Assembly: GCA_029932605.1 (NCBI GenBank)
Contig: JAOZPT010000002.1
Coordinates: forward strand, 15,873 to 79,872
Source: Candidatus Zixiibacteriota bacterium
GTDB taxonomy: Bacteria; Zixibacteria; MSB-5A5; UBA10806; 4484-95
Direction of reading: 5' to 3'
DNA: 64,000 bases
Of this stretch, positions 520-32,434 are shown one piece after another (the first letter of the stretch is position 1; every line of letters begins with the position of its first letter). Below the pieces are notes generated by a model. The model made no database searches, was not told the DNA's origin, and saw only the letters and a program-made list of their open reading frames with translations. The position numbers and the translations under genes are program-made.

Positions 520-565
520 TTAACCAAGATAATGGTCTCTGGTTCGTTATGGAGAGGTGAAAGTA

Positions 566-3500
566 ATGCCAATTAATGTCATATCCAAAATATTCGGTAA
601 TAAACATGACAGGGATATCAAAAAAATTCAACCCATCGTCTGGGAGATAAATGAAATTTATAAAACCCTTAAGGACAAGCCCGATGAGTGGTTTATCAAG
701 AGGACAGAAGAGTTCAAGGCTGAACTGAAGCCTGCAGGAGAGGAATACCTGGTTCGTTTAGGGGATAACCTTGATATTGATTATAAGCAGAAGAAAGAAA
801 TCTACCAGCAAATTATCGGCGACAAGCTTGATGAGATACTTCCTGAATCTTATGCAATGGTCAAAGAGACCTGCCGTAGGCTATTGGGTAAAACCTGGGA
901 TGTTTGCGGCATTGAGATAAAATGGGAAATGGTTCCTTACGACTGTCAGCTTATCGGCGGTGTGGTTCTTCATCAGGGGAAAATCACCGAGATGGCTACC
1001 GGTGAGGGTAAAACTCTTGCCGCTACTATGCCTTTGTATCTCAACGCCCTGGTTGGTCTAGGTGCACATCTTGTAACTGTTAATGATTATCTTGCCCGAC
1101 GTGATGCTCAATGGATGGGAAAAATATTTGAGTTTTTAGGGCTAACCGTTGGTTGCATACAGAATCAAATGATCCCTCATGAGAGGCGCCAGCAATATAA
1201 TTGTGATATCACCTATGGCACCAACAATGAGTTCGGTTTTGACTATCTGCGAGACAATATGGCTGTACATGCAGAAGAAATGGTTCAACGTGGATTTTTC
1301 TATGCCATCATTGACGAGGTTGATTCGGTTCTTATTGATGAGGCTAGAACACCGCTTATAATCTCTGGACCTGTTGAGTCGAAAATGAACGAGCGTTTCA
1401 TAGAAATGAAACCTCTGGTTAAGAACCTGGTAAATCGTCAGAACCAACTTTGTGCAAAGTTTATCACCGAGGGCGAGAGGTTATTAGAGGAAGGCAAAGA
1501 GTATGAAGCCGCTACAAAGTTTTTAATAGCCCAACGTGGTGCTCCTAAAAATAAACGGCTATTGAAACTTTATAAGGAGAAGGGTATCAAGCAACTGGTG
1601 CAGAATGTCGAACTTGCCTACATGCGTGATAAGAAGATGCATGAGATCAACAACCAACTTTATTTTTCCATAGATGAACGTGAGCATACTATCACTTTGG
1701 AGGACCCTGGCCGGTCAATGTTATCACCTAATGACCAGGAACTTTTTGAGATACCCGATATCGCAGAGGGTTTGGTAGCGATTGATAATGACCCAAATTA
1801 TAATGATGATGATAGAATTCGAGCCAAAGAGGAGTTGTATCGAAAACACGCCGAACGCTCCGAGAAAAACCATGCCATTAACCAGCTTCTGCGAGCATAT
1901 CAGCTTTACGAAGAGGATGTTGAATATGTCATTCAAGACGGCAAGGTCTTGATTGTAGATGAGTTTACCGGTCGTTTGATGCCGGGACGTCGTTACAGTG
2001 ACGGGCTTCACCAAGCAATTGAGGCTAAAGAGGGTGTATCCATAGAGGGGGAGACTCAGACATTAGCGACTATTACCCTGCAGAATTTCTTCAGGATGTA
2101 CGATAAGCTTTCCGGTATGACCGGCACCGCTGAAACCGAAGCGGGTGAGTTCTGGGAGATATATAAGCTCGATGTTGTGGTTATACCGACCAACAGGCCG
2201 GTCAGGCGTATTGATTACGAGGATGTTATTTATCGCAGTCGTAATGATAAATATAAAGCTATCGTTGAAGAGATAGTCCGCCTTCACAAAAAAAACATCC
2301 CGATACTGGTTGGCACCGTTTCGGTTGAAGTCTCCGAGATATTATCCCGTATGCTCAAGAGGCAAGGGATAGGCCATTCAGTGTTAAATGCCAAGTATCA
2401 CCAGCAGGAAGCGGAAATAGTAGCCAAAGCCGGTATCCCTGGTGCGGTGACTTTGGCCACCAATATGGCCGGCCGCGGTACCGATATCAAGCTGGAAGAG
2501 ACGGTTGTGAAATCACCTTTTTGTATGCTGGTTTCACCGGTTTCTGATAGTGAAGAATGTCCTTACTACAGAGAACTTAAGTGTGAGGAAGATGTCCCCT
2601 GCGGTTTGCACATTATTGGTACCGAGCGACATGAATCACGTCGTATCGACCGTCAACTTCGTGGTCGTTCCGGTCGTCAGGGTGACCCGGGTTGCTCGCG
2701 GTTTTTCCTGTCGCTTGAGGATGACCTTATGCGTCTCTTCGGCTCTGACAGGATTGCCTCTATCATGGATAGATTGGGTGTCAAGGAGGGTGAAGTTATC
2801 GAGCATAAAATGGTAACAAAAGCTATCGAACGGGCACAGAAACGTGTCGAGGCTCAAAATTTCTCCATCAGAAAACATCTTTTGGAATATGACGATGTAA
2901 TGAACATCCAGCGTAAAGCGGTTTACAGCAGGAGGGCAAAATGCCTTAAGGGTGAAAACCTCAAAGATGAGGCGTTAGAGCTTGTCCAAGAAGTAATCGA
3001 GGCTAAAGTCTGGGAGTATTGTCCTGAGAAAGAATATCCCGAAAACTGGAATCTGGGCGGCCTGCGTGAGCAGATGAGGAATATATTCTTAATGGACTTC
3101 AAATGGCCCCAGGAGGATATCCTAAAATTAAAACAACCAGACGTAATCAAAAGGCTTACTGATGCTGCCCTGAAAATTTACGAGGAAAAAGAGAATATTC
3201 TCGGCAGTGAAATGATGCGTAAGCTGGAGCGATTTTCATTTCTGTCAGTCATTGACTATGAATGGAAAGAACATCTTTATGAGATGGATCACCTGAGAAC
3301 CGGTATCGGCCTTCGAGCATACGGTCAGCGTGACCCGCTTATCGAGTTTAAAAAAGAGGGTTACCGTATGTTCATGGAGATGCTGGAACGGATCGATGAA
3401 CAGATCGTATCATCCATTTACAAGATGAAACCCGCCACCGAACCGGCTCGAATTCCCCGGGGACAGATGGTTGCCGCCAAACAATCAGCGGTGGGAATGG

Positions 3501-3700
3501 GGGTGGCCACCGCGGCTCAGACTCAGGCCGAACAGGCTGGTGGCGGAGCTGAGGTTGGTTACACCGGGCCCATGCAGGATGCCGAAGAACCAGCAAGGAA
3601 ACAACGACCGATTCGAGTGGGAAAGAAAGTAGGCCGCAACGACCCCTGCCCCTGCGGTAGCGGGAAGAAATACAAGCACTGCCACGGGAAAAGAAGTTGA
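566..3700 (+). CDS. secA: Preprotein translocase ATPase SecA
   Basis: EMATGEGKT Walker A, IIDEVDSVLIDEARTPLIISG, TNMAGRGTDI, QLRGRSGRQGDPG, C-terminal SEC-C motif GRNDPCPCGSGKKYKHCHG; ATG 566 follows GAGGTG. Confidence 0.99.
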   Translation: MPINVISKIFGNKHDRDIKKIQPIVWEINEIYKTLKDKPDEWFIKRTEEFKAELKPAGEEYLVRLGDNLDIDYKQKKEIYQQIIGDKLDEILPESYAMVKETCRRLLGKTWDVCGIEIKWEMVPYDCQLIGGVVLHQGKITEMATGEGKTLAATMPLYLNALVGLGAHLVTVNDYLARRDAQWMGKIFEFLGLTVGCIQNQMIPHERRQQYNCDITYGTNNEFGFDYLRDNMAVHAEEMVQRGFFYAIIDEVDSVLIDEARTPLIISGPVESKMNERFIEMKPLVKNLVNRQNQLCAKFITEGERLLEEGKEYEAATKFLIAQRGAPKNKRLLKLYKEKGIKQLVQNVELAYMRDKKMHEINNQLYFSIDEREHTITLEDPGRSMLSPNDQELFEIPDIAEGLVAIDNDPNYNDDDRIRAKEELYRKHAERSEKNHAINQLLRAYQLYEEDVEYVIQDGKVLIVDEFTGRLMPGRRYSDGLHQAIEAKEGVSIEGETQTLATITLQNFFRMYDKLSGMTGTAETEAGEFWEIYKLDVVVIPTNRPVRRIDYEDVIYRSRNDKYKAIVEEIVRLHKKNIPILVGTVSVEVSEILSRMLKRQGIGHSVLNAKYHQQEAEIVAKAGIPGAVTLATNMAGRGTDIKLEETVVKSPFCMLVSPVSDSEECPYYRELKCEEDVPCGLHIIGTERHESRRIDRQLRGRSGRQGDPGCSRFFLSLEDDLMRLFGSDRIASIMDRLGVKEGEVIEHKMVTKAIERAQKRVEAQNFSIRKHLLEYDDVMNIQRKAVYSRRAKCLKGENLKDEALELVQEVIEAKVWEYCPEKEYPENWNLGGLREQMRNIFLMDFKWPQEDILKLKQPDVIKRLTDAALKIYEEKENILGSEMMRKLERFSFLSVIDYEWKEHLYEMDHLRTGIGLRAYGQRDPLIEFKKEGYRMFMEMLERIDEQIVSSIYKMKPATEPARIPRGQMVAAKQSAVGMGVATAAQTQAEQAGGGAEVGYTGPMQDAEEPARKQRPIRVGKKVGRNDPCPCGSGKKYKHCHGKRS

Positions 3701-3708
3701 TGTGTATA

Positions 3709-3732
3709 CCGTCAGGAAGGGGTGCCTGACGG
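3709..3732. repeat. REP-like palindrome, copy 1 (CCGTCAGG-N8-CCTGACGG)
   Basis: Perfect 8 bp inverted repeat just after the secA stop; same CGTCAGG/CCTGACG core at 6832 and 32411. Confidence 0.65.
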
Positions 3733-3848
3733 CGCGGGAGATTTCCATTGTTTTTTTCAATTTAAAAAGATTTTTATAGCTTGATTCCAATTAAACAAAT
3801 ATTAATGTAAATTTAATTGTGTAAAATTGTATTAGTTGGAATTTAGAA

Positions 3849-3908
3849 GGTTTACGGGTATATCCAGGAAAAACAACCGGTTTTAAAGGAGGATACACCC
3901 GTGAAACC
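3849..3908. repeat. Imperfect ~17 bp inverted repeat
   Basis: GGTTTACGGGTATATCC ... GGATACACCCGTGAAACC, one mismatch and one bulge. Confidence 0.55.
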
Positions 3909-3909
3909 A

Positions 3910-4155
3910 TTAAGGTTTGACAGTAAAAATGTAGGTTGCGTTTTCAGCGGTGTCAAGAGTTTTTGGGAGGAGGATGTTAGGGATTTTGTTTTGAAGAATG
4001 TAAGAAGGCAGCTTGAGGGGATGTTGCGGGTTGGGGATCACAACCTCAGCCGTCTGTAACTCTACATCCTTCGGTTTTGCCGCCCGTCTTGGCTTGCTAT
4101 CCCAGACCAACCTGGCGGAGTCTTTTTTTCGGTATCTTTTATTGTTTATTGCCAC
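3910..4155 (-). pseudogene. Probable N-terminal remnant of a site-specific (Mod-like) DNA methyltransferase
   Basis: KRYRKKDSARLVWDSKPRRA..PKDVELQTAEVVIPNP resembles N-termini of Mod-type adenine MTases as recalled; similarity lost after ~45 aa; no DPPY or FxGxG motif. Confidence 0.45.
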
Positions 4156-4862
4156 AGATCAGCCTAATTCAAAACTAATTCAGAACAACCAATTTTTTAT
4201 ACTCAAATATATCTTTAATAATATGATGAAGTATAGGTTATTGAGTCAACAAAAAAGATTTCCTGCTTAGACCGTAGATGAACTATAGATCACGGTTACT
4301 GTTGTGAAAGAGTGGATTTTCCAACAGCCGCTAAACTTGATCTAACACCATCCCCTTTCTAACCATATATGTAACTTGAACCCACTAATATGGTAAAAGA
4401 CCCAACCTTGCCTCCCAAATTAAGAAAGGTCTCATTAATACATTTTACTGTATCTTCAGAGGAATTCGTCTGATTGTATTCTCATGAAAAAAAACATTTG
4501 GCTTAGATAGTCGAGATTTATTATCTTGATTTCAAAATATGATAAATATTTCCAGATACTTTGCGAAAAGCCGTTTTCAAGATCGCCACAGAATGCCCAA
4601 CAAAGTTGTGTTATGGATAAGATGATGAATATAATAATATGAGGAATATCGTAATGAATTTGTAAGATTTACAAGACAAAAAAACTTAACAGAACGCAAA
4701 GACTTAAGTACAGGAAAATAGCGAAAGATGATTACATTTATCGTAATACTTATAGCATTGATCGTCGTAATCTTGGCACTTAAGGAAATATTACAATACT
4801 TTAAGCCCGACGAGTAGTGTTTTGTAATTAGAAAACTCGATTATTGAAAGGTGGTGATTCAA

Positions 4863-5627
4863 ATGTTTTACTTGGAGGATAGCAAGCTTTATGTTGTAAA
4901 AGATATAGTATCCTGGTACCGAGAAGCCTGCAATGATCCGAAGTCTAAGGTATTACCCCACCCGACCAAGTATAGATGGAAAAGCTGGGATAATGACAGG
5001 TTATGGTGCTCAATTTTCTTCAGTATCGGAGTAAAGGGAGGCTCAAAGGCAGCACGTGATTATATAGAACCAATTGAAAAGGGATATGAGGATTTTGAAT
5101 TAAAAGTATTTGAGTTAACTCCTCTGGATACAGAATCTCGGATGAGGAAGATATGGGAATTTGGTAGAGGTAACAATAGACTCGGAAAAGCCTTGGGAAG
5201 GTTTTTCAGCAGGCCAGAAAATTTCGGTAGAAAAAATGGTTTTGAGCGAAATATAACCGATGCCTTCTCTATTCTTGAAAAGCATGGATTCATGGATTGG
5301 TTCTATGAGATTGACAGCTATTCTGAGGATAGAGAGAAAGCTAAAGCCATGGAAGAATTTCCTGGTGTAGGGCTTAAAGTTTCTCGTGATTTTCTTAATG
5401 ATATCGGGATGACAGATTCACTGATAGCCCTCGATTTACATGTTTTAAAAGAGATGCAAGAAAATTGGGGCTGGTCTGTGCCATCTCAGACCCCTACTGA
5501 TAGACCACTTTATGAAGCTATAGAGGATGGAGTTAGGAACATTGCAAGGAGAGCAGGAGCAACGGTACTGGAAATTGACAAGGCAATATATTTTGGCAGA
5601 ATGACTGATGAATATATACACAGCTAA
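4863..5627 (+). CDS. HhH-superfamily DNA glycosylase/AP lyase, OGG2-like and divergent
   Basis: HhH motif EFPGVGLKVSRDFLNDIG (Lys) followed by ALDLHV (Asp), then YEAIE..VRNIA....LEIDKAIY; SD AAGGTGGTGA before ATG 4863. Confidence 0.75.
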   Translation: MFYLEDSKLYVVKDIVSWYREACNDPKSKVLPHPTKYRWKSWDNDRLWCSIFFSIGVKGGSKAARDYIEPIEKGYEDFELKVFELTPLDTESRMRKIWEFGRGNNRLGKALGRFFSRPENFGRKNGFERNITDAFSILEKHGFMDWFYEIDSYSEDREKAKAMEEFPGVGLKVSRDFLNDIGMTDSLIALDLHVLKEMQENWGWSVPSQTPTDRPLYEAIEDGVRNIARRAGATVLEIDKAIYFGRMTDEYIHS

Positions 5628-5675
5628 CTGCGGTTCTATTCTTAAAAACTTTTACAATCGGAAGGGGTTTTAGTC

Positions 5676-6656
5676 ATGTTTGGTAAAATTCAAGATATAC
5701 TAGGTGTTGAAGATTTGATAGGCTTGCATAAGAAATTGGTAGGGAAAGAGAAAACATTCATTGAGAAATGGGAAGTTCAAAATTTTAAGAATCTTGATTC
5801 TATTCCGGACATTCGAGGTAAATTTGCCATATACCTTCTAGTCAGAAGTGATTATCCCGTATACCTTGGCAAAAGCGTTAATGCATCTATTCGAGTAAAG
5901 AATCATGTCCAGGAAAAAGATTTTGACAGGATGACTATATTTTCCTCAGAAGCTTTTACTAATGACATCAAAGTTCTTAGCTATATCGAGTTTCTCTGCT
6001 ATTATACTCTCTGGTCAAAAGGATACTGTCTGATATACAATAGCACTGATGTTTGGAACACCTTGCCAATAAAGAGCCAGAAGGGGCCCGCCTTTAACCC
6101 AACTGAGGTATCATATGCGCATAATTTCATGAACATGTATTTGAGCTCATTGGAAAAAGCGAATCTTTCTCCTCCTATGATTCCCGGAAAACCTTTAAAA
6201 CTGGAATATCATGGAAAGAAAGAAATTACCGTAAATGCCATATACTGGAGACCAACAATCAAAAAGGAACTTCACAGCCTGGCCATCGATTATTGGGACA
6301 AAAAAAACGAAGAACGTCTGAAAAGAAGTAGATCTAAGAACAAAAATAAATTGAGATGTAAATTTACTGGGAGCGGGTCTTTTCAGCTACTGAGGGGGAC
6401 AAAAGGCATAATAATGCGCAACGATTATGACCAGCAGACAACTTACGACTTACTTAGGAAGATTGAAGTCTTCACTGAAACTAGTGGAGAAACTTTATGG
6501 GTGGCCGATTACCCTTTTCCTAAGTCAAATCTAATGCTTCATATAATTCAAGCTATGAATTCTGCTAACGCCAGATATGAGCTTTCAATTGCCAGCACAG
6601 GAAAGTATTTGCATGAATTGGAAAATGAATGGAGGGACCAATTGGGCTTAGAATAA
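5676..6656 (+). CDS. GIY-YIG nuclease with C-terminal DUF4357-like domain
   Basis: AIYLL...VYLGKS..ASIRVKNH...SYIE (GIY-YIG Tyr/Arg/His/Glu pattern); C-terminus FQLLRGT...DYPF...NSANARYEL...TGKYLHELE resembles DUF4357. Confidence 0.75.
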   Translation: MFGKIQDILGVEDLIGLHKKLVGKEKTFIEKWEVQNFKNLDSIPDIRGKFAIYLLVRSDYPVYLGKSVNASIRVKNHVQEKDFDRMTIFSSEAFTNDIKVLSYIEFLCYYTLWSKGYCLIYNSTDVWNTLPIKSQKGPAFNPTEVSYAHNFMNMYLSSLEKANLSPPMIPGKPLKLEYHGKKEITVNAIYWRPTIKKELHSLAIDYWDKKNEERLKRSRSKNKNKLRCKFTGSGSFQLLRGTKGIIMRNDYDQQTTYDLLRKIEVFTETSGETLWVADYPFPKSNLMLHIIQAMNSANARYELSIASTGKYLHELENEWRDQLGLE

Positions 6657-6831
6657 CTCTGAGTTATTGAACCTTCTTGAGTTTGAGCCTAATCTAATAT
6701 ACTATGTCCATAACATAACGTTTTTCATCCCGTCTTAAGTTTTCATTACATTCTTATTCCAGAAATTCGAGATGATTTGGACTTGGCTTATAAGTGGCCA
6801 TAGTCTTATGATGATGGTGATTAATTACCGT

Positions 6832-6928
6832 GTCGTCAGGTCGCCGCACCTGACGACTTCAACATGAAAATCCCGACAACTCTACTCAAAATGTCGGGTT
6901 TCATTGTAGGTCGGCCTGCCCGACCTAC
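6832..6928. repeat. Cluster of three hairpins, including REP-like copy 2 and a GTAG-type palindrome
   Basis: GTCGTCAGGT-N6-ACCTGACGAC (6832-6857); CCCGACA...TGTCGGG (6872-6898); GTAGGTCGG-N5-CCGACCTAC (6906-6928); lies between convergent genes. Confidence 0.7.
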
Positions 6929-6957
6929 TGGTTGACTTATTAAAACAACAATAGTAG

Positions 6958-7767
6958 CTATTTCCATACCTTCAAAACCTGTCTTATCATATCCTCAAGC
7001 AAATCCAGTTTCAATTGGCAGTTTTTATCGGATTTGGCCTTTTGAGGGTCAGGGTGTGTTTCGATAAATAAGCCATCCACGCCGACAGCGACGGCAGCTT
7101 TTGCCAGAGGTAAAATAAACTCGGGAGAGCCTCCGGAGGAACCGCCCTTGGCTCCCGGTTTCTGCACCGAGTGAGTGCAATCGAAAATAACCGGAAAGCC
7201 GGTTTTTTTCATTATCACCAGCGAACGGAAATCAACTATCAAGTCGTGATATCCAAAAGTGGTTCCGCGTTCGGTGAGAATCACCTTATTGTTGCCCTCC
7301 GATACCGCTTTTTGTGCTATTTCGCTCATATCCTCAGGAGCCATGAACTGTCCCTTTTTTATGTTTAGAGGAAGCCCGGTTTTTGCAGCTGCCAAGACAA
7401 GCTCGGTTTGCCTGCATAGGAAAGCTGGAATCTGAAGGCAATCGGCAACCTCTGCTGCCATATCAGCCTCGTCGGGTTTGTGAATATCGGTCAAGATTGG
7501 CACATTAAATTGGCTTTTGACATCAGCCAGTATCTTAAGAGCCTTATCAACGCCTATCGTGGCAAACGATTTTCCCGATTGGCGGTTGGCTTTTATATAT
7601 GATGATTTGTAGATAAAGGGAATGTCAAGTTTTTGCGAGATTATTTTTAATTTTTCAGCGGTGGCAAAGGCGATTTCTTTTGATTCCACCACGCATGGCC
7701 CGGCGATAATAAATGGCTTGCCTGAACCGATTTCAATTTCACCTATTTTAAATTTTGTTTCGGCCAC
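6958..7767 (-). CDS. kdsA: 3-deoxy-8-phosphooctulonate (KDO8P) synthase
   Basis: IAGPCVVE, KANRQS, QIPAFLCRQT, KKGQF, FDCTHSVQ motifs. Confidence 0.97.
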   Translation of the reverse strand: MAETKFKIGEIEIGSGKPFIIAGPCVVESKEIAFATAEKLKIISQKLDIPFIYKSSYIKANRQSGKSFATIGVDKALKILADVKSQFNVPILTDIHKPDEADMAAEVADCLQIPAFLCRQTELVLAAAKTGLPLNIKKGQFMAPEDMSEIAQKAVSEGNNKVILTERGTTFGYHDLIVDFRSLVIMKKTGFPVIFDCTHSVQKPGAKGGSSGGSPEFILPLAKAAVAVGVDGLFIETHPDPQKAKSDKNCQLKLDLLEDMIRQVLKVWK

Positions 7768-8144
7768 GGTTTCTCCTTTACCGCTATGACCTGCCAGACC
7801 GATTTTCTTCCCCGGGATTTGAATTTTCTCTCCATTTTCAGCTCAAGTATCATATCGGGAAGTTCGACTTCTATCAGGCCATGAAATATACCCTCCCCTA
7901 CAATTATAATATTTTCGGGCCTGACATCTCTATCACAATATTGAGAGTTGTTCAAAAAAGCTGAGGTGACGGCTTTGATATCAGTCCACCACGGCTGATA
8001 GCCTGAGTCGCTTTCAGCCTGGTAATAAAGAATATCTTTATCGGGTGGATAAGGCAATTCTATGGTATATTCTTCGAATTTATTCATTTTTACACATCCA
8101 CCTATGAGCAGGGCGAGGAAAATAGCTGTGTAAATCTTTTTCAT
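7743..8144 (-). CDS. Hypothetical lipoprotein
   Basis: Signal peptide with lipobox LIGGC; overlaps pyrG stop and kdsA start. Confidence 0.75.
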
Positions 8145-9814
8145 TTATTTTTAAGAGTTGATGCTGATATTTTTGTGGAGGGTACCTTTTTTGATTTTTG
8201 ATATTTCAGGGCTGCTTCAACCAAACCTTTAAAAAGCGGATGAGGTGCCATTGGCCGTGATTTCAACTCAGGATGAAATTGACTGGCGATGAAATAAGGG
8301 TGGTTTTGCAATTCTATCATTTCAACCAGCGCTCCATCGGGAGACAGACCGGAGAAAACCATGCCTTTATCGCCAAGGACGTTACGGAATTCATTGTTAA
8401 CCTCATAGCGGTGTCGATGGCGCTCACTTATTTTCGGTTTATTGTATATCTTTTCGGCAAGAGAGCCTTTTGTGATATTACAGGGGTATGCTCCGAGTCG
8501 CATAGTACCACCCTTACGTGTTATTTTCCGCTGTTCATCCATAAGGTGAATCACAGGGTGTGGGGTTTTTTGATCAAACTCGTAAGAATTGGCATTTTTT
8601 AGTCCACAGACATTGCGAGCAAACTCAATCACAGCGCATTGCAGGCCAAGACATAAACCCAAAAAGGGTATTTTGTTCTCCCGTACATATCTGACCGCCT
8701 CGATTTTTCCCTCAATGCCTCGCTCGCCAAAGCCGCCCGGGATAAGGACACCATCAACATTGCTGATGAATTTTTCAACTCCCTCATCTGCAATCTCCTC
8801 TGACGATACCCAGACAAGTTCAACATGGGTATCGTTTGGTACACCAGCATGGATGAAAGCCTCGGTTATCGATTTGTAGGCGTCTCTAAGGTTGATATAT
8901 TTACCAACTATAGCTATGCGAACATTATGGACTGGCTTTTTGACCTTTTCCACCATCTTTTTCCATTCTTCAAGGTCGAGGTCCTTGCATAAAAGGTCGA
9001 GATAGTGTACTATGAGGTTGTCGAGAAGTTCGCAATGAAATAAGATTGGCACCTCATATATGGTTTGACAGTCTATGTCCTGGATAACGGCTTCGGGGGG
9101 CACATTACAGAAAAGCCCTATCTTGCGCTTGATATCCCGAGATAGCTTTCTGGTTGTTCGACAGATAAGGATATTGGGTTGGATACCAATCTCCCTGAGC
9201 GCCTTAACAGAGTGTTGTGTTGGTTTGGTTTTCAATTCATCGGATGTTTTAAGATAGGGAATCAGGGTAAGGTGTATAAAGAGGGTATTTTCGGGGCCAT
9301 ATTCTAAGCCCATCTGGCGTATTGCCTCAAGGAAAGGCATAGCCTCGATATCACCTACCGTACCTCCTATCTCGGTAATAACGATATCAACATTATCGTC
9401 CATCTGAGCAAGTAACGTACATCGCGATTTGATTTCATCGGTAATGTGGGGAATAACCTGCACTGTCGCACCAAGATAATCGCCTCGTCTTTCCCGCTGA
9501 ATTACTGCATCATAAACCTGCCCCGAGGTGACATTGGAAAATTTATTCAAGCTGACATCGATAAAACGCTCATAATGCCCCAGATCAAGGTCTGTTTCCG
9601 AGCCATCATCAAGGACATAAACCTCTCCATGCTGGAACGGATTCATAGTCCCCGGATCGACATTTATATAAGGATCGAATTTCTGAAGTCTGACCTCTAA
9701 GCCCCTAGATTTTAATAATAAACCAATGCTAGCAGCAGCAATTCCTTTGCCTAAAGATGAGGTAACACCACCGCTAATAAATATGTATTTTGTCTGCTTC
9801 TTCTTACGAGGCAT
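8141..9814 (-). CDS. pyrG: CTP synthase
   Basis: [42 protein letters not shown]. Confidence 0.99.
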
Positions 9815-9816
9815 AG

Positions 9817-10566
9817 CTATCTCAAATTGTCTAACATTTTTTCAGCCTTTAATAAATCTTCCTGCGTATCTATCCCCAATGTAAGATGCTTGCAAATGAC
9901 ACAAAAAATGTCATACCCGTTCTCCAGGGCCCTCAATTGTTCTAAACTCTCTACGGTTTCGAGGGGAGTTCTTTTTAAGGAGGCGAATGTTTGTAAAAAC
10001 TTTGGCGTAAAACCATAGATGCCTATATGCCGGTAGATGTTAAAATGAACGGGACTTTCAAGACCTTTTTCATTGACAGACCAAGGAATTCTGCTTCTGG
10101 AAAAATATAAGGCCTTTCCAGCCTTATCCAATACAACCTTGACGATATCGGGGTTATCGACATTGGCCATGTCTGCAAAAGTACTACAGGCCGTACTCAT
10201 AACTGCTTTGGAATTGTCAATAAGACATCCAGCAACTTTGTCGATTACCTCGGGCGAGAGCAGGGGTTCATCTCCCTGGATATTCAGGATTATATCAGCT
10301 TTGAGGTCTTTGGCCACAGCCGCTACTCGCTCACTACCGCAGGTGAAATTCCCCTTGGTGATAGCAATTTTACCGCCATACTTGGTTACTGCTTCGGCTA
10401 TACGCAAATCATCTGTAGCAACAATTACATCATCGATGATGGATGCTTTTTGTGCTTGCCTCATCACCCGGACTATTATAGGAATGTTACCAAGCAACGC
10501 CAACGGCTTACCTGGAAACCGGCGTGAAGCATATCTTGAGGGAATTATTCCAATTACTTTCGGCAC
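9817..10566 (-). CDS. kdsB: 3-deoxy-manno-octulosonate cytidylyltransferase
   Basis: [43 protein letters not shown]. Confidence 0.97.
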
Positions 10567-10747
10567 AAGTTATTTTAATAAAAGCCTGATTTCATGTCAA
10601 CAAAAAAGGAATTTTGGCAATCCCTGAATATTTAACTTTATCGAAAGCATGTGCGGTGGAGCATCTTATCGTTTCGAATATTAATGGTTTTTCAGTTTGA
10701 TTGTTCTATAATTTTCGATAAATTGTCATTTACGAGGTGTATTATAA

Positions 10748-11230
10748 GTGAATGAATTTCTTATTGAACCGCTTAAAAATGAACATCACGATTGGCTTGT
10801 TGAGTTTCTTTGCGAACAATGGGGATCGACAATAACAATCAGCCGGGGACATATCCACAATACGGATAAATTGCCGGGCTTTGTGGCTGTTTTAGACGGT
10901 CGATTTGTGGGGTTGATAACATTCAATATATACAAACAGGAATGCGAGATTGTAACATTAAACAGCGTTGTAGAAAAACGTGGTATAGGTACAGCTTTGA
11001 TTAATGAGGTCAAAAGGATGGCCATTTTAAAAGGATGCGGAAGATTATGGCTTGTAACGTCGAATGATAACCTCAGAGCCGTGCAGTTCTACCAAAAGCT
11101 GGGTTTTCGATTAGTTAAGATTTATCGTAATGCGATTGAAAAGTCGCGCCAGCTCAAGCCTGAAATTCCTTTGATAGGAATAGACGGAATACCGATTCGT
11201 GATGAGATCGAACTGGAGTTCATTTTATAA
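10748..11230 (+). CDS. GNAT family N-acetyltransferase
   Basis: KRGIGTAL acetyl-CoA motif, LVTSNDNLRAVQFYQKLGF; SD GAGGTG. Confidence 0.92.
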   Translation: MNEFLIEPLKNEHHDWLVEFLCEQWGSTITISRGHIHNTDKLPGFVAVLDGRFVGLITFNIYKQECEIVTLNSVVEKRGIGTALINEVKRMAILKGCGRLWLVTSNDNLRAVQFYQKLGFRLVKIYRNAIEKSRQLKPEIPLIGIDGIPIRDEIELEFIL

Positions 11231-11645
11231 AAGAGATAATCATTGTTCTACTTAGCCTTATATATTTATTAAGACCGGTGAATTCCCTACTGCCATAATT
11301 GATTAAGGTTTTTTCTTTACAATATAGATTGAGTACTTCACCGTATCAAAACGCATAAAATATACATATTGGCTTTATAATGACTAAAGTAACAAGGCGT
11401 TGGAGCGGAATGAAATGCTTTTGCAAAATGAACAATAAGGCATTACCAGTAGCGTCCCAACGTTTTTCTAAAAAATCGGGAGAACTATAAGAGCCTCAAT
11501 ATAAAGCCAAGAAACATTCCGAATCAACACGTCGGATTTTTTTCGATATAGAAAAACAGAAATGTCTTGTTTCTCTAACAAACGATTTTAAACCGCCTGC
11601 TGTGACGATAGCAAAACTGTATAAGATTCCAAATTCCTGCTTATG

Positions 11646-12482
11646 TCAATACCCCTTACTACCAATGAACACTGCCAATATACCCAGCGGCATTACCGCT
11701 TTCATGAAACCTGCAACAAAGCGATATGTCCTCTTTTCAGGTGAACGAATTAAACAAATAACAAAATACAGCAAAAACAAATCCGTACCAAATATCACCA
11801 CTACCAAATAAACCAAACCATATATTTTTATCAGGTAAGGAACGATGGTAGCGAATACCAGTAATATGGTGAAGCCAACCGCTAAAAACCTCGAAACGGC
11901 AAAACCGTATTTAACAGCTCCTGTTTTAACATTACAATTCCTATCGACGTCGAAATCTTCCATATCCTTGACGATTTCGCGAACCAGATGAAACAAGAAA
12001 GCAAACGCTGCCGGTATCAATCCCCCGCGGATGTTACCAACCGAAGCTGCCCCGTAGAAAAAGGCTGTAGCGGAAATTATCGATATCAATATATTACCGA
12101 CATAGCCACTACCTTTAAAGAAGGGCGTGTACAGAAATAATCCCAAGGATGCCAATGATGCAATTATAAGGCACTGGATGTTTATGAGTGCGGCGAGCAC
12201 CAGGCCACATATCGCCATTATCAAAGCCAGAACGATCGCTGATTTTACCGAGACCAAGGATGAGGGTAATGGCCGAAACGGCTTTGAACGTTTGTCGACC
12301 TCTATATCGAATATGTCATTACAGGTATTGCCGAATCCGGCTATAAAAGCGGCTGAAATACAGGCTAAAAGCAAACTATCTGAATAAAATTTGTCTATGG
12401 ATATGATACCACCAAGATAAACCGATAATAGGGATATTAAAACATTTATCGGCCTGACGATGTACAGAAACGCCCTAATCAA
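11646..12482 (-). CDS. UbiA-family prenyltransferase, DGGGP-synthase-like
   Basis: NDIFDIEVD...RPLPS and REIVKDMEDFDVD Asp-rich motifs; multiple TM helices. Confidence 0.85.
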   Translation of the reverse strand: MIRAFLYIVRPINVLISLLSVYLGGIISIDKFYSDSLLLACISAAFIAGFGNTCNDIFDIEVDKRSKPFRPLPSSLVSVKSAIVLALIMAICGLVLAALINIQCLIIASLASLGLFLYTPFFKGSGYVGNILISIISATAFFYGAASVGNIRGGLIPAAFAFLFHLVREIVKDMEDFDVDRNCNVKTGAVKYGFAVSRFLAVGFTILLVFATIVPYLIKIYGLVYLVVVIFGTDLFLLYFVICLIRSPEKRTYRFVAGFMKAVMPLGILAVFIGSKGY

Positions 12483-14221
12483 AATCCCGCCTTTAACCCG
12501 AAATGAAGTTTAGTTGATGAAATACCTTCATCATGGGGAACTGCGATCTCGATAACCATCGAACCTGTTTTAACAGATGTAGCCAACCCGAATCCATAAC
12601 CGGTTTTAAACTCCGTTGCTTTTGAATTTTTCTGGGCATTGCCGGATGTATAGTAGTTCCCCGGTGTCTGAAAAAAAGCCATATCGGAAAAAATATATGC
12701 CCTGCTGTTCCTTGAGGTCAATAACCTATATTCTACTGTTGCTATTGCTGAACGTGATACATAAAATATATCCTGTTTGTATCCTCTTAAAGAACCAAAA
12801 CCACCTATGGGGAATTGCCTGTCAGGTGAAATGTTTTCCGAGAAATCACCCTGGCCAGAGATACCCACAAATAATATCGATGACCTAAACAGATGCACAT
12901 ATTTTTCAATCTTCAAATTTATACTCCTGTAATTATCACTCCCGGAGGCAAAATAATCATTTCCTTTAATCTTTTCCGACACAAAAACCCCTTCTATGTA
13001 TAAATAATCACCCAAACCTGGATTTGTAGGAAAATCTCTTGTATCAGCAGAAAAATTCACCGAAAACCTGAGTTTCTCTTTTTGAGGCAATAACGATTTA
13101 CCATAAAATTCTGGACTAATCTTTGATACTCCTAACGAAACACCATAGGTGAATATATCAGATGATATTAACGATAGGCCAATAGTACCGCCACTTTCGA
13201 TAAAAATGCTATCACGGTCGTTCTGATAAAACTCAATATCAAAACGAAGGGGTATTCCCATTGGATATGGTTCAGAAAAGCCCACTTTGAGCCAGCGAGA
13301 TTGTTTGTCTTTTTTTGACCAGTCAAACTTTACCATACGCCCTTTGCCGAGGATATTTTTGATAATAGCTGAAAGGCGGCCATAGAATTCATCATCATCA
13401 GAGGAATAACCAACAGCACCATCAATCATCAACGGCGATGCCTCTTTTATTGGGAAAAACACCACACCCTTTTCCGGTGATTTAAAATACCTAACCTGGA
13501 TATCCCCGGTATCTCTTAAAAATTCAGCCAACGATAATCGCCTTTGAGTTAATTTGAGTTTGGCTGTTGAGAACAAAAACGGGGGCTTTAAACCCGAATA
13601 TGTCTCCAAGAATCTATAACCAAGGTTTTTCCTTCCCGGAAAATCGATTTTTTCAACGGTCATCTCTGGCCCCGGTTGAATATTCAAAGTAAATTCCAAC
13701 AATTTTAACTTACTACGATTCCTTGAGTTGATGGTTTTTACTCCAGAAACTTTTACCTCGCAATATGGGTAACCATTATCAGCGTAAATCTCGATTATTT
13801 CGTTGGCCAAATCATCAATGTTTGAAGTGATGGCTGGCTTTCGCTCGAATCGTTCAAGCACAGAATATATCTCATCTGAAAATAACTTCCGCCCACCTGT
13901 TTCATTAATATTAATTGATAAAAAATATCTATCCTTTTTATCCACGTTAAAGATTATCTCAACCCCATCCCCTTTTTCCCGGACATCAATGTCAACCTGG
14001 CAATCAAACCATCCGTGATTTTGAAAATATGATATTATTTTAAGGGAGTCCGAGGAAAGGCTATCAGGTTTAAATTCTCTTTTGGGCCTATTGAATAGAT
14101 GAATCTTTGAAGATAGTTTATCGCCTTTGAATGAAATCTTCTTAATGATATCACCTGCTTGAATAGTTGAAGCCAGAAAGCTGACACAAACAGCGACTAG
14201 AATTACATTTTTCTTTATCAA
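12479..14221 (-). CDS. Omp85 (BamA/TamA-family) outer membrane protein
   Basis: POTRA-like repeats (YFQNHGWFD, YADNGYPY), GGFGSLRGY loop motif, terminal Phe. Confidence 0.85.
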   Translation of the reverse strand: MIKKNVILVAVCVSFLASTIQAGDIIKKISFKGDKLSSKIHLFNRPKREFKPDSLSSDSLKIISYFQNHGWFDCQVDIDVREKGDGVEIIFNVDKKDRYFLSININETGGRKLFSDEIYSVLERFERKPAITSNIDDLANEIIEIYADNGYPYCEVKVSGVKTINSRNRSKLKLLEFTLNIQPGPEMTVEKIDFPGRKNLGYRFLETYSGLKPPFLFSTAKLKLTQRRLSLAEFLRDTGDIQVRYFKSPEKGVVFFPIKEASPLMIDGAVGYSSDDDEFYGRLSAIIKNILGKGRMVKFDWSKKDKQSRWLKVGFSEPYPMGIPLRFDIEFYQNDRDSIFIESGGTIGLSLISSDIFTYGVSLGVSKISPEFYGKSLLPQKEKLRFSVNFSADTRDFPTNPGLGDYLYIEGVFVSEKIKGNDYFASGSDNYRSINLKIEKYVHLFRSSILFVGISGQGDFSENISPDRQFPIGGFGSLRGYKQDIFYVSRSAIATVEYRLLTSRNSRAYIFSDMAFFQTPGNYYTSGNAQKNSKATEFKTGYGFGLATSVKTGSMVIEIAVPHDEGISSTKLHFGLKAGF

Positions 14222-17200
14222 AACTCCGCTTTTACCTCCAACCTTAGATTGCTATTCGAGTAGCCATCGCCAAGTTTCTTATAAACATATCGAACTTCAA
14301 GCCGGCTGTATGAGTTCAACCGGAAGCGTGCGGAAAACATGCCATTAAAATTATCGCCTGATTTCTTACTGCCAGCTATTACATAAGGCAGAAAAATATC
14401 CTGTTGGTCTACATCAACATAAGAATAATTACCCTCAGCTTCGAGCCGGCCAGTTTTTCTGAAATTAAACATGGCATTCAAACCAGCCGAATAAACCAGC
14501 ACCTGTAACTCACGGATTTTTTCATCTGTTTTAGAAAAATTTAAAAGTGCCGCAATACGCAATCCTGAGGAGGGATGGTATTCCGGCGCAAACCCGATTC
14601 TCAACTTGTTAAAATCGACTTTACCGGAGTAAAGCCACCTTTTCTCCGACGATACCTCCGTCGAAATAAAATAACTCGTTCGCCCACCGGAAAGAAGCTT
14701 CAAATCAACGATATTTGACAACGCCTGGTCATCCAGATTTTCAAACTGGAAATCTGTACCCTGACCTCGGGAAACATTTAAAGTATGCCGAAAATAGTCA
14801 CCTGTTTTATTTATCCTGAATGTCGTCCGCTGGCGAAAGTCGAAATTCTTGAGGATGAACTCATCAAAATCGCTAAGACCAAATAAATGTTTTGCCTTTA
14901 AATTTATTCCACCAGCTAAATTCGTCTTATACGACAAATCCACTTCATAATTAATATTGTTTACAATTACTGACCAGGGAGCTTCAGAATTCTCGCTTAT
15001 ACCTTTACCGTCAAAACGGGCTCTTGCCCCACCAGTAATTTCGTAGTTTAATAGCCCACCAGTCGATGGCTCATATTCACCAATTTGTCTTATTATCTCG
15101 ATGTAGTCCCCACCGGGTTCAGGCACATAATCATCACCATCCTTGCGATAATCACCTTTGCCATCTCCTACATAAATGTATTCACGCACTCTCGTAACAG
15201 GAGTGGAACCGTTGACACTCTCGTAAAAAGTGAATCCGAAATTAGAGGAATTGTATTTTATTTTCATATCCCCCATATTCCTTGAAAAATACTCTCTCTG
15301 AGGGAAAAACCTTTTTTGATAAAACCAAACCAGATTAACCTCCCCGGAAAATCCCGATTTAGTTTTACCGTATACGAGGTTTTGTTCAATCTGATACTGG
15401 TCATAGTGGTTACGCCATCCACCGTTGCCAAGACCGCCATTCTGGAAATATTTCTGTTGACGATAGAGAAACCTTGTTAAAGAATTTAAACAAGCAAGCG
15501 ATTTAAACTCAAGGCTACCCTCATAATCATCAGATATGAAACCATCGCTATCGGAGTAAAGACCACTGTTTATCTCATGCCTGTAAGTTATACCGGGTTG
15601 AAATATTCCCGTAATAAATTTGCTACATGCCTCGTATTTATTCCAGGCTGAAAGTCTACCCGTATCGTTGCTTTCCGATTCAGAAACCTCCATATTCGAT
15701 GATAATGCAAGCATGTCGAAAGTAATCAGGTTGACCTTACCGAAAATACGCCTAGCCTTAAAATCATCACCTTCTAAAAATCCACCACCTGCATTTAGGA
15801 AGTCACCTGAAATCGTTGAGGCTGTTGACTGAATCTCGAAAAGGCGTTCCCCGACGAGCGAACGGTTTTGCTGGATGTTATAGTTGCGGAAGAATTCAGG
15901 GGGGTCTATTATGCCCGGGATGGAAAAATTCTTATCAAGGCCTCGGAATTTAAAATCGAAGATATCCGCTTTCCAGGTTTTTCCAGCAAAACGCAGGTTC
16001 TTAACTCTCCAGCCACCAGATCCTAACAAACCTATTCCTGTAAGCAATTCATCCCTGGCGGAGAGGCTGTTACGGTCATAACGAGATACCGCCAATTCTC
16101 CACCAAAATGAATGTCACCTGGCTTATTGAACATAAGTGATCCATAATTCCGTGATTCAGGAAGAGGATAGTAAATGACTGGAAGGTATGAACCGTTACC
16201 GGTACCAACATATATATATCGCCCCGTTCCGCCATACTGGTAATCGCCATGACCTTGAGCAACACGGCTGAAAGTCACCTCATATTCACCCTCGCCATCA
16301 CCAACATAAACATAGTAACTGTTTCCAAGTGTATCCGTCTCGAGGAGGTAGTCGCCACCGCCTTGCCCGATATACTTTACACCGGAAATGTAAGCCGAAT
16401 CCCCGGTTGCTCCAGCCTGACTTATAGCCATTTTTTGCTCATCGCCCATATCAAAGCTCCTGGGCCTTGATTTATCATCAGACTCATTAATAAACTGTAA
16501 GCCGACATTATATTTTCCTTCATAAAAAGCGGTGCCGTAATAGAAACTTCTACGGTAACCCTCAGGAGCATATTGTATCTCTACCGTTATGCGGCTTCGT
16601 GAGCTTATGACATTCCTTGGAGTAAATTCGATGTAACCTTCGTAATAATCGATTTTATAATCGTTTTCACCACCACGTTTTAATCTTTTCCCATCAAGGT
16701 AAACCTTTTCTGTGCCCGGTAAAAAGACACTGGCAACGGAAATGTCTCCGATTGCTGCAGGTCCGAGGTCGTGCAAAAAATACGGGCCCTGTTTACCGTC
16801 AACACCATAAAAAAACAGTTCTACTTGCTTGCCAGGGGAAAACGCTACTGCTGATGAGCCATTCAAATTGCCTATATTTCCGTAAAAGTTTAACCCCGTC
16901 AACTTTCGGTGAAAATCGAGAAGAGATCTCTTTATCCCATTTATTTCAATATCACCAAAATCACTCCGGAAACCACCAGTCTCCAGACTTAAAAAGACCC
17001 GGTCAAGTTCGTCCAGTGACCTTGTCCCGCCGCCTGGAGACGTTGTGAAATTGCGGTCGGAAATGCTACCATTGACACTAACGTTCCTTGCCAATATACC
17101 AGAGATATTGAGGTCAAGGCTTTGCGACATCGATGGTTCACCGCGGTTACCTATATTTACCACGAACCCCTTACTACCAATTATTTCAAGCTGGTCCGAC

Positions 17201-32410: not shown

Positions 32411-32434
32411 CCGTCAGGTCGCCCGACCTGACGG
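32411..32434. repeat. REP-like palindrome, copy 3
   Basis: CCGTCAGGTCG-CC-CGACCTGACGG, perfect 11 bp arms; a second GTCGG...CCGAC hairpin at 32451-32470. Confidence 0.7.

Follow-up and report, generated by a model that had tools for sequence, protein, structure and literature searches.

An islet between secA and kdsA in a Candidatus Zixiibacteriota genome: an Ogg2-fold DNA glycosylase candidate and a divergent GIY-YIG nuclease, found as neighbours at this locus only and probably independent

In the present study we analysed a 64,000-nt stretch (hereafter the window) of contig JAOZPT010000002.1 of a Candidatus Zixiibacteriota bacterium, whose genome (G000; 2.53 Mb) is 99.96% complete. Between the housekeeping genes secA and kdsA the window carries two intact, co-oriented genes, both of which can be read directly as open reading frames (ORFs), in agreement with an earlier interpretation made from the DNA sequence only (the sequence-only reading). 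Gene 1 (positions 4863-5627, plus strand) encodes a 254-aa candidate DNA glycosylase/apurinic-apyrimidinic (AP) lyase with the helix-hairpin-helix (HhH) fold of Ogg2 enzymes; gene 2 (5676-6656, plus strand) encodes a divergent GIY-YIG nuclease of 326 aa. The explanation that we favour, at a probability of roughly 0.55, is that both lie in a small defence islet that was acquired horizontally and is decaying, made up of the stump of a type III restriction-modification (R-M) system and two independent single-gene modules. The adjacency of genes 1 and 2 would then reflect the shuffling of modules in a defence hot spot and not functional dependence. The main practical result of the analysis is a negative one, namely that adjacency at this locus is no reason to assume a two-gene system.

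The sequence-only reading had treated the pair as one base-excision system and had set the conserved co-occurrence of homologues as a check. The two families were never found together outside this locus, and the one-system idea is therefore unsupported. Sixteen loci with gene-1 relatives were available (L001-L004 among them), four of them from genomes and 12 from metagenomes, and 12 of the 16 had at least 1 kb of flanking DNA on at least one side. When the ORFs of these loci (all those with 60 aa or more) were searched, the gene-1 profile gave matches in 16/16 and the gene-2 profile in none (0/16); the four whole genomes behind L001-L004 also contained no gene-2 match. Among 285 genomes of the phylum, strong gene-1 matches were present in three (plus two weak ones) and gene 2 in two, the G000 genome and G161, and the only overlap was in G000. 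G161 contains no gene-1 match, and its gene-2 relative lies solitary between groES-groEL and eno. Indirect evidence comes from the JGI collection, where a search with gene 1 yielded 12 contigs, none of which is that of the gene-2 relatives P0024 or P0026 (2,168 and 12,761 bp, respectively). When neighbours were compared all against all, none was common to unrelated gene-1 loci apart from the 337-aa family described below, and our literature searches yielded no report of a defence system composed of an Ogg2-type glycosylase and a GIY-YIG nuclease.

The metagenomic contig L005 is particularly informative. It is 98.6% identical to the window over positions 3834-5595 and diverges about 30 bp before the stop codon of gene 1, which places a recombination junction inside the 3' end of this gene (5595-5627, plus strand; the blastn alignment stops at 5595). 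The L005 version of gene 1 ends with FAHMTGEY and is followed at once (0-bp gap) by a different gene, which belongs to a family of 337-aa proteins. In L003 a member of the same family precedes the gene-1 relative by 17 bp, and a full-length copy (70% identity) is present in G017, a genome in which no gene-1 match was found. These proteins (L003 8971-9981, L005 1786-1974) have no Pfam or PADLOC match, and the only lead to their nature is an Atlas assignment to NucS_C. Their C-terminal domain of about 120 residues (motifs such as VVPA.EDGF, WYAIRI and KYIAVY), for which no Pfam family match was obtained, recurs in L040 (1417-2313) and L042 (1120-2091), i.e. in PDC-S14-like GIY-YIG proteins without DUF4357. 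Since this domain is common to the two groups, the alignments suggest that reader domains are swapped among single-gene nucleases. In the simplest reading, gene 1, gene 2 and the 337-aa family are three independent modules shuffled in defence hot spots.

Profile matches to the gene-1 protein are confined to its C-terminal part and fall below the family cut-offs, both for Pfam PF22175 (Ogg-HhH; 22.6 bits, cut-off 27) and for NCBIfam NF002305 (N-glycosylase/DNA lyase; 31.1 bits, cut-off 183). The gene-1 family comprises 22 clusters (E<=0.001; 370 candidates were drawn from 5.8 billion proteins) with 45-66% identity, and 10/22 members carry a precomputed PF22175 match. An AlphaFold model built on the family alignment (predicted local distance difference test, pLDDT, 92.2) aligned over residues 7-250 with entire Ogg2 chains (VIA-align Z 15.3-15.6; 201-202 residues aligned of chains of 207-209). 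The top three fold matches are the solved Ogg2 enzymes, i.e. Ogg of M. jannaschii (3fhf/3knt), Tm1821 of T. maritima (3n0u) and Ogg of S. solfataricus (3fhg), followed by D. radiodurans EndoIII-3 (Z 12.6) and OGG1 (about 11.8). Foldseek retrieved the M. jannaschii enzyme with the same model (E 2.4e-5), and a profile search of PDB sequences retrieved 3fhf (6e-9). As in Ogg2, the model shows a two-domain HhH-GPD fold of about 200 residues and no OGG1 A-domain. Thus, the N-terminal half, described in the sequence-only reading as unrelated, is not so: because the model aligns with whole Ogg2 chains, this half is predicted to have the Ogg2 fold with a diverged sequence and about 45 extra residues. 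Sequence identity to the three Ogg2 enzymes is only 13-17%.

The catalytic residues named in the sequence-only reading were confirmed. K172 (in GVGLK) and D191 (in ALDLH) are in register with the motifs GIGYK and IDRH of 3fhf and are invariant in 22/22 members of the family. W202, W204, E221 and R225, candidate residues of the base pocket, are invariant as well. It had also been noted correctly that the protein ends with DEYIHS and lacks the C-terminal Lys of Ogg2 enzymes; this residue is present in 0/21 of the members with a complete C-terminus. In a review (PMC3397491) the C-terminal Lys is described as strictly conserved in OGG2, its carboxylate reading the N7-H of 8-oxoguanine (8-oxoG), and truncation of the C-terminus is stated to abolish 8-oxoG excision while AP-lyase activity stays. 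Judging from these residues, gene 1 very likely encodes an Ogg2 derivative that still cuts glycosidic bonds and nicks DNA; it probably reads a base other than 8-oxoG, since the lysine by which Ogg2 distinguishes 8-oxoG from G has been lost. The enzyme would flip out and excise a non-canonical, probably purine-derived, base of invading DNA and then nick the strand by its lyase activity.

No relatives of gene 1 or gene 2 were found among viral contigs or plasmids. Searches of phages with gene 1 yielded 16 weak partial matches only (residues ~158-246, 35-36% identity), from phiCbK-like Caulobacter phages, which indicates that such phages carry an Ogg2-like HhH enzyme. These are giant phages (records H1-H10, e.g. 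JX163858.1 99694-99939), and in one record the protein is annotated as 'putative N-glycosylase/DNA lyase'. Longer or fused forms of gene 1 were not found among longer proteins, although this is weak evidence.

Gene 1 is an accessory gene with a patchy distribution and not a housekeeping one, which distinguishes it, as an island-borne gene, from Ogg2 core repair genes. The G000 genome holds, in addition, an Fpg gene and one HhH-GPD (Nth-like) gene. The neighbourhoods of the 16 gene-1 loci were compared with PADLOC using 61 ORFs, i.e. 60 of the 70 that were sent to Pfam plus the downstream fragment of L005. The ten that were left out comprise three ORFs of L006 that duplicate those of L001, two L004 sensor kinases and five short ORFs, of which four are antisense. 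Matches at E<=1e-5 were obtained for 14/61 ORFs in 5/16 loci, all within 6 kb, in line with the expectation that homologues of gene 1 reside near defence genes. They comprise REase_III and PDC-S45 in L002; a type IIG R-M enzyme, HKD+Snf2, PDC-S02 and an Avs4-like protein in L003, where Pfam adds a TIR protein; PDC-S15 and PDC-S31 in L013; PDC-S31 in L014; and PDC-M21A/B in L016. L001/L006 represents a mobile element, which encodes a serine recombinase and a protein of the PriCT primase type. The assignment of both genes of the islet to the defence type, made in the sequence-only reading, is thus upheld by context: gene-1 relatives either have restriction, Avs-like, TIR and PDC genes as neighbours or are part of a mobile element, the islet contains a decayed type III R-M gene, and gene 2 is distantly related to PDC-S14.

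Some of these loci deserve a separate description. The L003 island (961-16616) is a dense array of co-oriented defence genes with gaps of 17-53 bp, which encode, in order, an SNF2-PLD helicase-nuclease, a type ISP/IIG R-M enzyme, a NucS_C/PDDEXK protein, a 181-aa protein, the 337-aa nuclease-like protein, the gene-1 relative, the TIR protein, whose C-terminus forms a hydrophobic tail, and an Avs4/nSTAND-like protein of 1730 aa. In L002 the gene-1 relative is followed (4640-7253) by genes for two uncharacterised proteins of 179 and 483 aa and for a dCTP deaminase-like protein (Pfam DCD, 141.7 bits), which has no PADLOC match at 1e-5; this segment may be an uncatalogued nucleotide-depletion module. 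In L016 the gene-1 relative is reduced to a 91-aa C-terminal remnant (2453-2725) beside an intact PDC-M21A/B pair, and the locus is another decaying defence spot.

The closest parallel to the presumed function of gene 1 is offered by the recently described Dag proteins. Dag1, Dag2 and 17 more glycosylases of the HhH superfamily were reported to defend, each as a single gene, against phages with 7-deazaguanine DNA. For Dag1, a bifunctional enzyme, K118, D184 and W188 (the stacking Trp) are essential, and the Dag proteins are remote in sequence from repair enzymes and reside in integrons or mobile AT-rich DNA (10.1101/2025.10.29.685425). Gene 1 resembles them in its membership of the HhH superfamily, the Lys-Asp active site, the single-gene organization and the AT-rich mobile or defence context. 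In contrast, Dag originates from Vibrio integrons, whereas the gene-1 family comes from uncultured lineages, and the two were compared by description. By analogy, gene 1 fits the Dag-type antiviral glycosylases in fold class, chemistry and genomic habit, and its action may be likened to that of Dag1 on 7-deazaguanine phage DNA.

A similar logic, in which a phage-specific modified base is excised and abasic sites are left, underlies Brig1 (see PMC11078745) and has been reported for Brig3 with BapA (10.64898/2026.02.25.707755). In the latter case the glycosylase is accompanied by a helper encoded in its own operon. The Brig enzymes differ from gene 1 in that they have the uracil-DNA glycosylase fold and act on pyrimidine modifications, and the helper acts as a deglucosylating hydrolase rather than a nuclease. 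END nucleases (PMC12191111) resemble the locus as a whole, as they combine an Ogg/EndoIII-type fold with a nuclease against hypermodified phage DNA; however, the HhH domain of END is catalytically dead and fused, whereas gene 1 keeps the Lys/Asp pair, encodes a protein of its own and shows no consistent link to a nuclease.

The nature of gene 2 was less obvious. Pfam gave no match to its product at E<=1, neither to PF01541 nor to DUF4357 (PF14267), a genome-wide search found no DUF4357 either, and NCBIfam gave only faint matches to the N-terminal part of UvrC/Cho. A PADLOC hidden Markov model (HMM) for PDC-S14 matched residues 45-112 only (E 7.5e-8). PDC-S14 we take to be a GIY-YIG nuclease with DUF4357 and a candidate phage defence, and this was checked here on L041 and L043, two bona fide proteins with full-length PADLOC matches (1e-98 to 1e-103), Pfam DUF4357 scores of 59-74 bits and a faint RAMA match. 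Family members proved to be extremely rare: a word-indexed search returned four proteins including gene 2 itself, and an exhaustive profile search of 1.84 billion representatives only five full-length clusters. A further 108 proteins matched profile positions ~30-125 only, and 25 of the 26 that were scanned have a Pfam GIY-YIG match; two relatives, P0027 and P0029, score just above the PF01541 cut-off (22.7 and 22.9 vs. 22.6).

GIY-YIG nucleases are characterized by the tyrosines of the GIY and YIG motifs, an Arg, a His/Tyr, a metal-binding Glu and an Asn. The corresponding residues of gene 2 (Y53, Y63, G65, R73, H77, E105 and N122) are invariant in 7/7 family members and in register with those of the PDC-S14 proteins. 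The structural model (pLDDT 77.5) matched 2lwf, a plant domain that is presumably GIY-YIG (Z 8.1, 103 residues aligned), and UvrC (1ycz; Z 5.6, 77 residues aligned of a chain of 89), and more weakly T4 EndoII (Z 4.5), I-TevI (Z 4.3) and PD-T4-3 (Z 4.0); these matches came from a wider VIA search, as Foldseek against PDB gave nothing at E<=1e-3. PD-T4-3 (PDB 9u75, recorded as a '5hmC specific restriction endonuclease') is a single-gene GIY-YIG defence nuclease aimed at modified DNA; its weak fold match to gene 2 is limited to the GIY-YIG core.

The gene-2 protein appears to consist of three parts, the GIY-YIG domain (residues ~45-125), a middle region specific to the family and, at the C-terminus, a putative DUF4357/RAMA-like domain (~235-300). 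The first part of the earlier description of gene 2, as a GIY-YIG nuclease joined to a DUF4357-like domain, is borne out by residues, fold and the PDC-S14 match, whereas the DUF4357-like tail is supported indirectly, by hhalign and the Atlas, and not by Pfam. In the hhalign comparison with the two bona fide PDC-S14/DUF4357 proteins, which are from the same phylum, the alignment (86% probability, E 4.8e-6, 200 collinear columns) runs from the GIY-YIG core into the DUF4357 segment, and the three best Atlas clusters for gene 2 carry DUF4357 (0.87-0.88). The fold comparison added weak hits, namely MPND, the CcrM C-domain and SAND (Z 3.9-4.8). The middle of about 110 residues, with the invariant motifs YCLIYN, VWNTLP and YWRP, was found nowhere else and has no counterpart in PDC-S14, whose HMM covers only the GIY-YIG zone of gene 2. 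PDC-S14 and gene 2 share the catalytic residues and an occurrence as stand-alone genes (as in G161), and by hhalign their layout is collinear into the putative DUF4357-like tail. Since gene 2 is collinear with the PDC-S14 proteins and yet rare and provided with a middle region of its own, the comparisons place it as a remote, rare branch of the GIY-YIG/DUF4357 class. It would act as a stand-alone endonuclease, probably aimed by the C-terminal DNA-binding domain. No gene-2 relative was found in phages, and gene 2 is not surrounded by an intron or intein context.

The islet, as described in the sequence-only reading, indeed lies between secA (557-3700, plus strand; NCBIfam SecA equivalogs, e.g. 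NF009538 with 1060.8 bits vs. a cut-off of 814) and kdsA (6958-7767, minus strand; NF003543, 383.5 bits vs. 242). The right flank encodes KdsA, PyrG and KdsB according to curated models, all on the minus strand. From the secA stop to the kdsA stop the islet spans 3.26 kb. The ORF of gene 1 extends over 4851/4863-5627 and its ATG at 4863 is preceded by AGGTGG; a spacer of 48 nt separates it from gene 2, and each of the two genes has its own ribosome-binding site. Promoter and terminator scans were at background level (11 found vs. 10.2 expected and 4 vs. 2.6, respectively) and detected no terminator-like site between genes 1 and 2, which are probably co-transcribed at this locus. The GC content is 0.355 in the gap, 0.400 in gene 1 and 0.373 in gene 2, compared with 0.457 in secA and 0.451 in kdsA, and this drop relative to the flanks is suggestive.

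Comparative analysis at the DNA level (window positions 2500-8100 against the 30 nearest genomes) revealed that matches to secA and kdsA never occur together in these relatives. They are mostly on different contigs, and the closest pair is 23 kb apart (G030); the adjacency of the two genes is therefore unique to G000 among the 31 genomes compared. In none of the 30 genomes was there a match to the genes between secA and kdsA, only short repeats. With the flanks apart and the inner genes unmatched in all relatives, the junction is lineage-specific and its content accessory; the islet sits at a lineage-specific rearrangement junction. A search for direct and inverted repeats (3600-7000) detected only short pairs of low identity and no att-like or flanking direct repeats.

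A further component of the islet is the remnant of a methyltransferase (MTase) gene, also pointed out in the sequence-only reading, which was right in this respect. Pfam and NCBIfam HMM scans of the non-coding fragments of 3701-4862 gave no match, and the remnant was recognized by a protein search within the phylum. It comprises approximately the first 50 codons of a type III mod gene (4003-4152, minus strand): over residues 3-52 the minus-strand frame 3913-4158 shows 68-83% identity to the N-terminal ends of N6_N4_Mtase ORFs of 664-676 aa in three genomes (G256, G266 and G267), all of the same class. In both of the genomes (of the three) that were read further, the full-length MTase gene is followed by a ~940-aa ResIII gene, which identifies the system as type III R-M. 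Since the stump of a type III methylase survives in it, the islet can be regarded as a former R-M site. We also considered a restriction glycosylase, i.e. a glycosylase with a protecting methylase (PMC10273834). This candidate was dropped, as the methylase trace is of type III, with its own Res in the relatives, and gene-1 relatives have no conserved methylase neighbour.

Several observations weigh against the interpretation of the locus as a decaying islet with independent modules. A nuclease-type gene abuts gene 1 in the window, in L005 and in L003 (all from one bacterial family), and the position of the swap junction, within the 3' end of gene 1, is also compatible with a glycosylase whose nuclease partners can be exchanged. 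The 48-bp gap between genes 1 and 2 is, in addition, devoid of a terminator-like site. The sample on which gene 2 appears to stand alone is very small, as only one relative from outside the lineage (G161) was seen in context and P0024, P0025, P0026, P0028 and P0029 were not covered. As regards the defence role, PADLOC has no model for gene 1, 11/16 gene-1 loci have no PADLOC match among the neighbours (many of the contigs are only 1-4 kb long), some of the matches are generic (Ser/Thr kinase, helix-turn-helix), and 5/16 is a raw count. The link between gene 1 and the Dag proteins is an analogy of fold class and logic only. Moreover, the low GC content of the islet is not extreme, considering that the window averages 0.409 and that values <=0.385 occur in 20% of its 1-kb segments.

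Among the alternatives, the one that survives best, even if it is unlikely, views gene 1 as a mobile repair glycosylase for oxidised or alkylated purines with no defence role, and gene 2 as an unrelated, selfish or homing-type GIY-YIG nuclease. The closest solved relatives of gene 1 are all 8-oxoG repair enzymes, its catalytic pair is intact, Pfam Ogg-HhH is detected in 10/22 family members, and one member is named 'thermostable 8-oxoguanine DNA glycosylase' in one source; GIY-YIG domains are common in homing endonucleases, with which the match to I-TevI (Z 4.3) agrees. On the other hand, the Ogg2 determinant of 8-oxoG recognition is absent, G000 is already equipped with Fpg and Nth-like enzymes, and the patchy distribution and the defence or mobile neighbourhoods are unlike those of housekeeping glycosylases; the Dag preprint gives 45% for Dag and 3.1% for housekeeping glycosylases (10.1101/2025.10.29.685425). 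Gene 2, for its part, lacks an intron or intein context and has no match in the phage, plasmid and viral collections.

Slightly less probable still is a modular system, with gene 1 as the constant anchor and an exchangeable nuclease with a reader-type domain as its partner, GIY-YIG/DUF4357-like here and of the NucS-like 337-aa family in L005 and L003. In such a system an active Ogg2-derived glycosylase/lyase would mark the modified DNA of an invader by AP sites or nicks, the neighbouring nuclease would convert these into double-strand breaks, and partners would be swapped by recombination in the 3' end of the glycosylase gene. The proposal accounts for the nucleases placed directly against gene 1 in three arrangements, with gaps of 48 bp (window), 0 bp (L005) and 17 bp (L003). 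It also accommodates the observation that the sequence past the breakpoint between L005 and the window (about 30 bp inside the gene-1 3' end) is diverged but still gene-1-like, which implies that the donor DNA, too, had a gene-1 allele beside its nuclease, as well as the C-terminal domain common to the 337-aa family and some PDC-S14-like proteins (L040, L042). However, the three cases come from one bacterial family and are not independent, and no such nuclease neighbours gene 1 in the other loci with readable flanks (the L001/L006 element, L002, L004 and L011-L016). The 337-aa family occurs without gene 1 in G017, and the tight spacing in L003 is uninformative, since the entire island is packed at 17-53 bp.

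Least probable is the original proposal of one two-gene base-excision system, in which the glycosylase removes a modified phage base, the GIY-YIG/DUF4357 protein sees the AP site, the nick or the same modification and makes a lethal cut, and neither works well alone: the arrangement of the genes (co-oriented, 48 bp apart, with their own ribosome-binding sites and no terminator-like site between), the presence of two rare families in the same islet, the fusion of a PLD nuclease with an inactivated EndoIII/Ogg sensor in END nucleases (PMC12191111) and the existence of a glycosylase with a helper enzyme, Brig3 + BapA (10.64898/2026.02.25.707755), speak in its favour, but co-occurrence fails wherever it is testable, L005 keeps gene 1 at 98.6% DNA identity with another gene downstream, gene 1 retains the lyase Lys and so should nick DNA alone, and (as weak evidence) no fused form of gene 1 was seen among longer proteins.

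If gene 1 is truly antiviral, it adds an Ogg2-derived lineage to the newly recognised defence glycosylases, and the loss of the C-terminal lysine would mark the step from a repair enzyme to an immune effector, i.e. a natural experiment on the re-tuning of base specificity. Gene 2 would add to the GIY-YIG/DUF4357 candidate class a very rare and strongly diverged branch whose middle region is new. The locus as a whole illustrates both the building and the decay of small defence islets, as its type III R-M system is dead and modules have been exchanged among strains that are nearly identical.

The palindromes reported in the sequence-only reading to bracket the islet are real, since no CGTCAGG..CCTGACG hairpins are expected by chance in the window, but they do not appear to be the ends of an element. 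The first, CGTCAGG-N8-CCTGACG (3710-3731), is located 10 nt past the secA stop and the second (6834-6855) between the convergently oriented gene 2 and kdsA. Only four exact copies exist in the G000 genome, three of them in the window; the third (32412-32433) is located about 85 nt past a gene end and the fourth at G000:C62:13738-13759. All three copies in the window adjoin the 3' end of a gene, and look-alikes of 28-36 nt are scattered in multiple copies in related genomes of the same order. Because the third copy also lies behind a gene end and similar matches are scattered in relatives, these palindromes are read as hairpins of the repetitive extragenic palindrome (REP)/terminator type. Reading of the sequence revealed a further hairpin, GTAGGTCGG-N5-CCGACCTAC (6906-6928), 30 nt beyond the kdsA stop.

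The methylase remnant is truncated by a copy of a dispersed repeat (3782-4000, plus strand), which contains the start of a small ORF (3901-4059, MKPLRFDSKNVG...). The repeat is ~150-220 nt long and includes a Shine-Dalgarno site and the small-ORF start MKPLR[FL]DSKNVG. No Rfam match was obtained for it, nor for any part of 3500-7100 at E<=0.1. G000 carries four other partial copies (two at contig ends), and seven copies with 78% identity are present in G001. The same leader precedes a 79-aa ORF in another copy of the repeat, which may be a mobile leader/promoter cassette or a miniature inverted-repeat transposable element.

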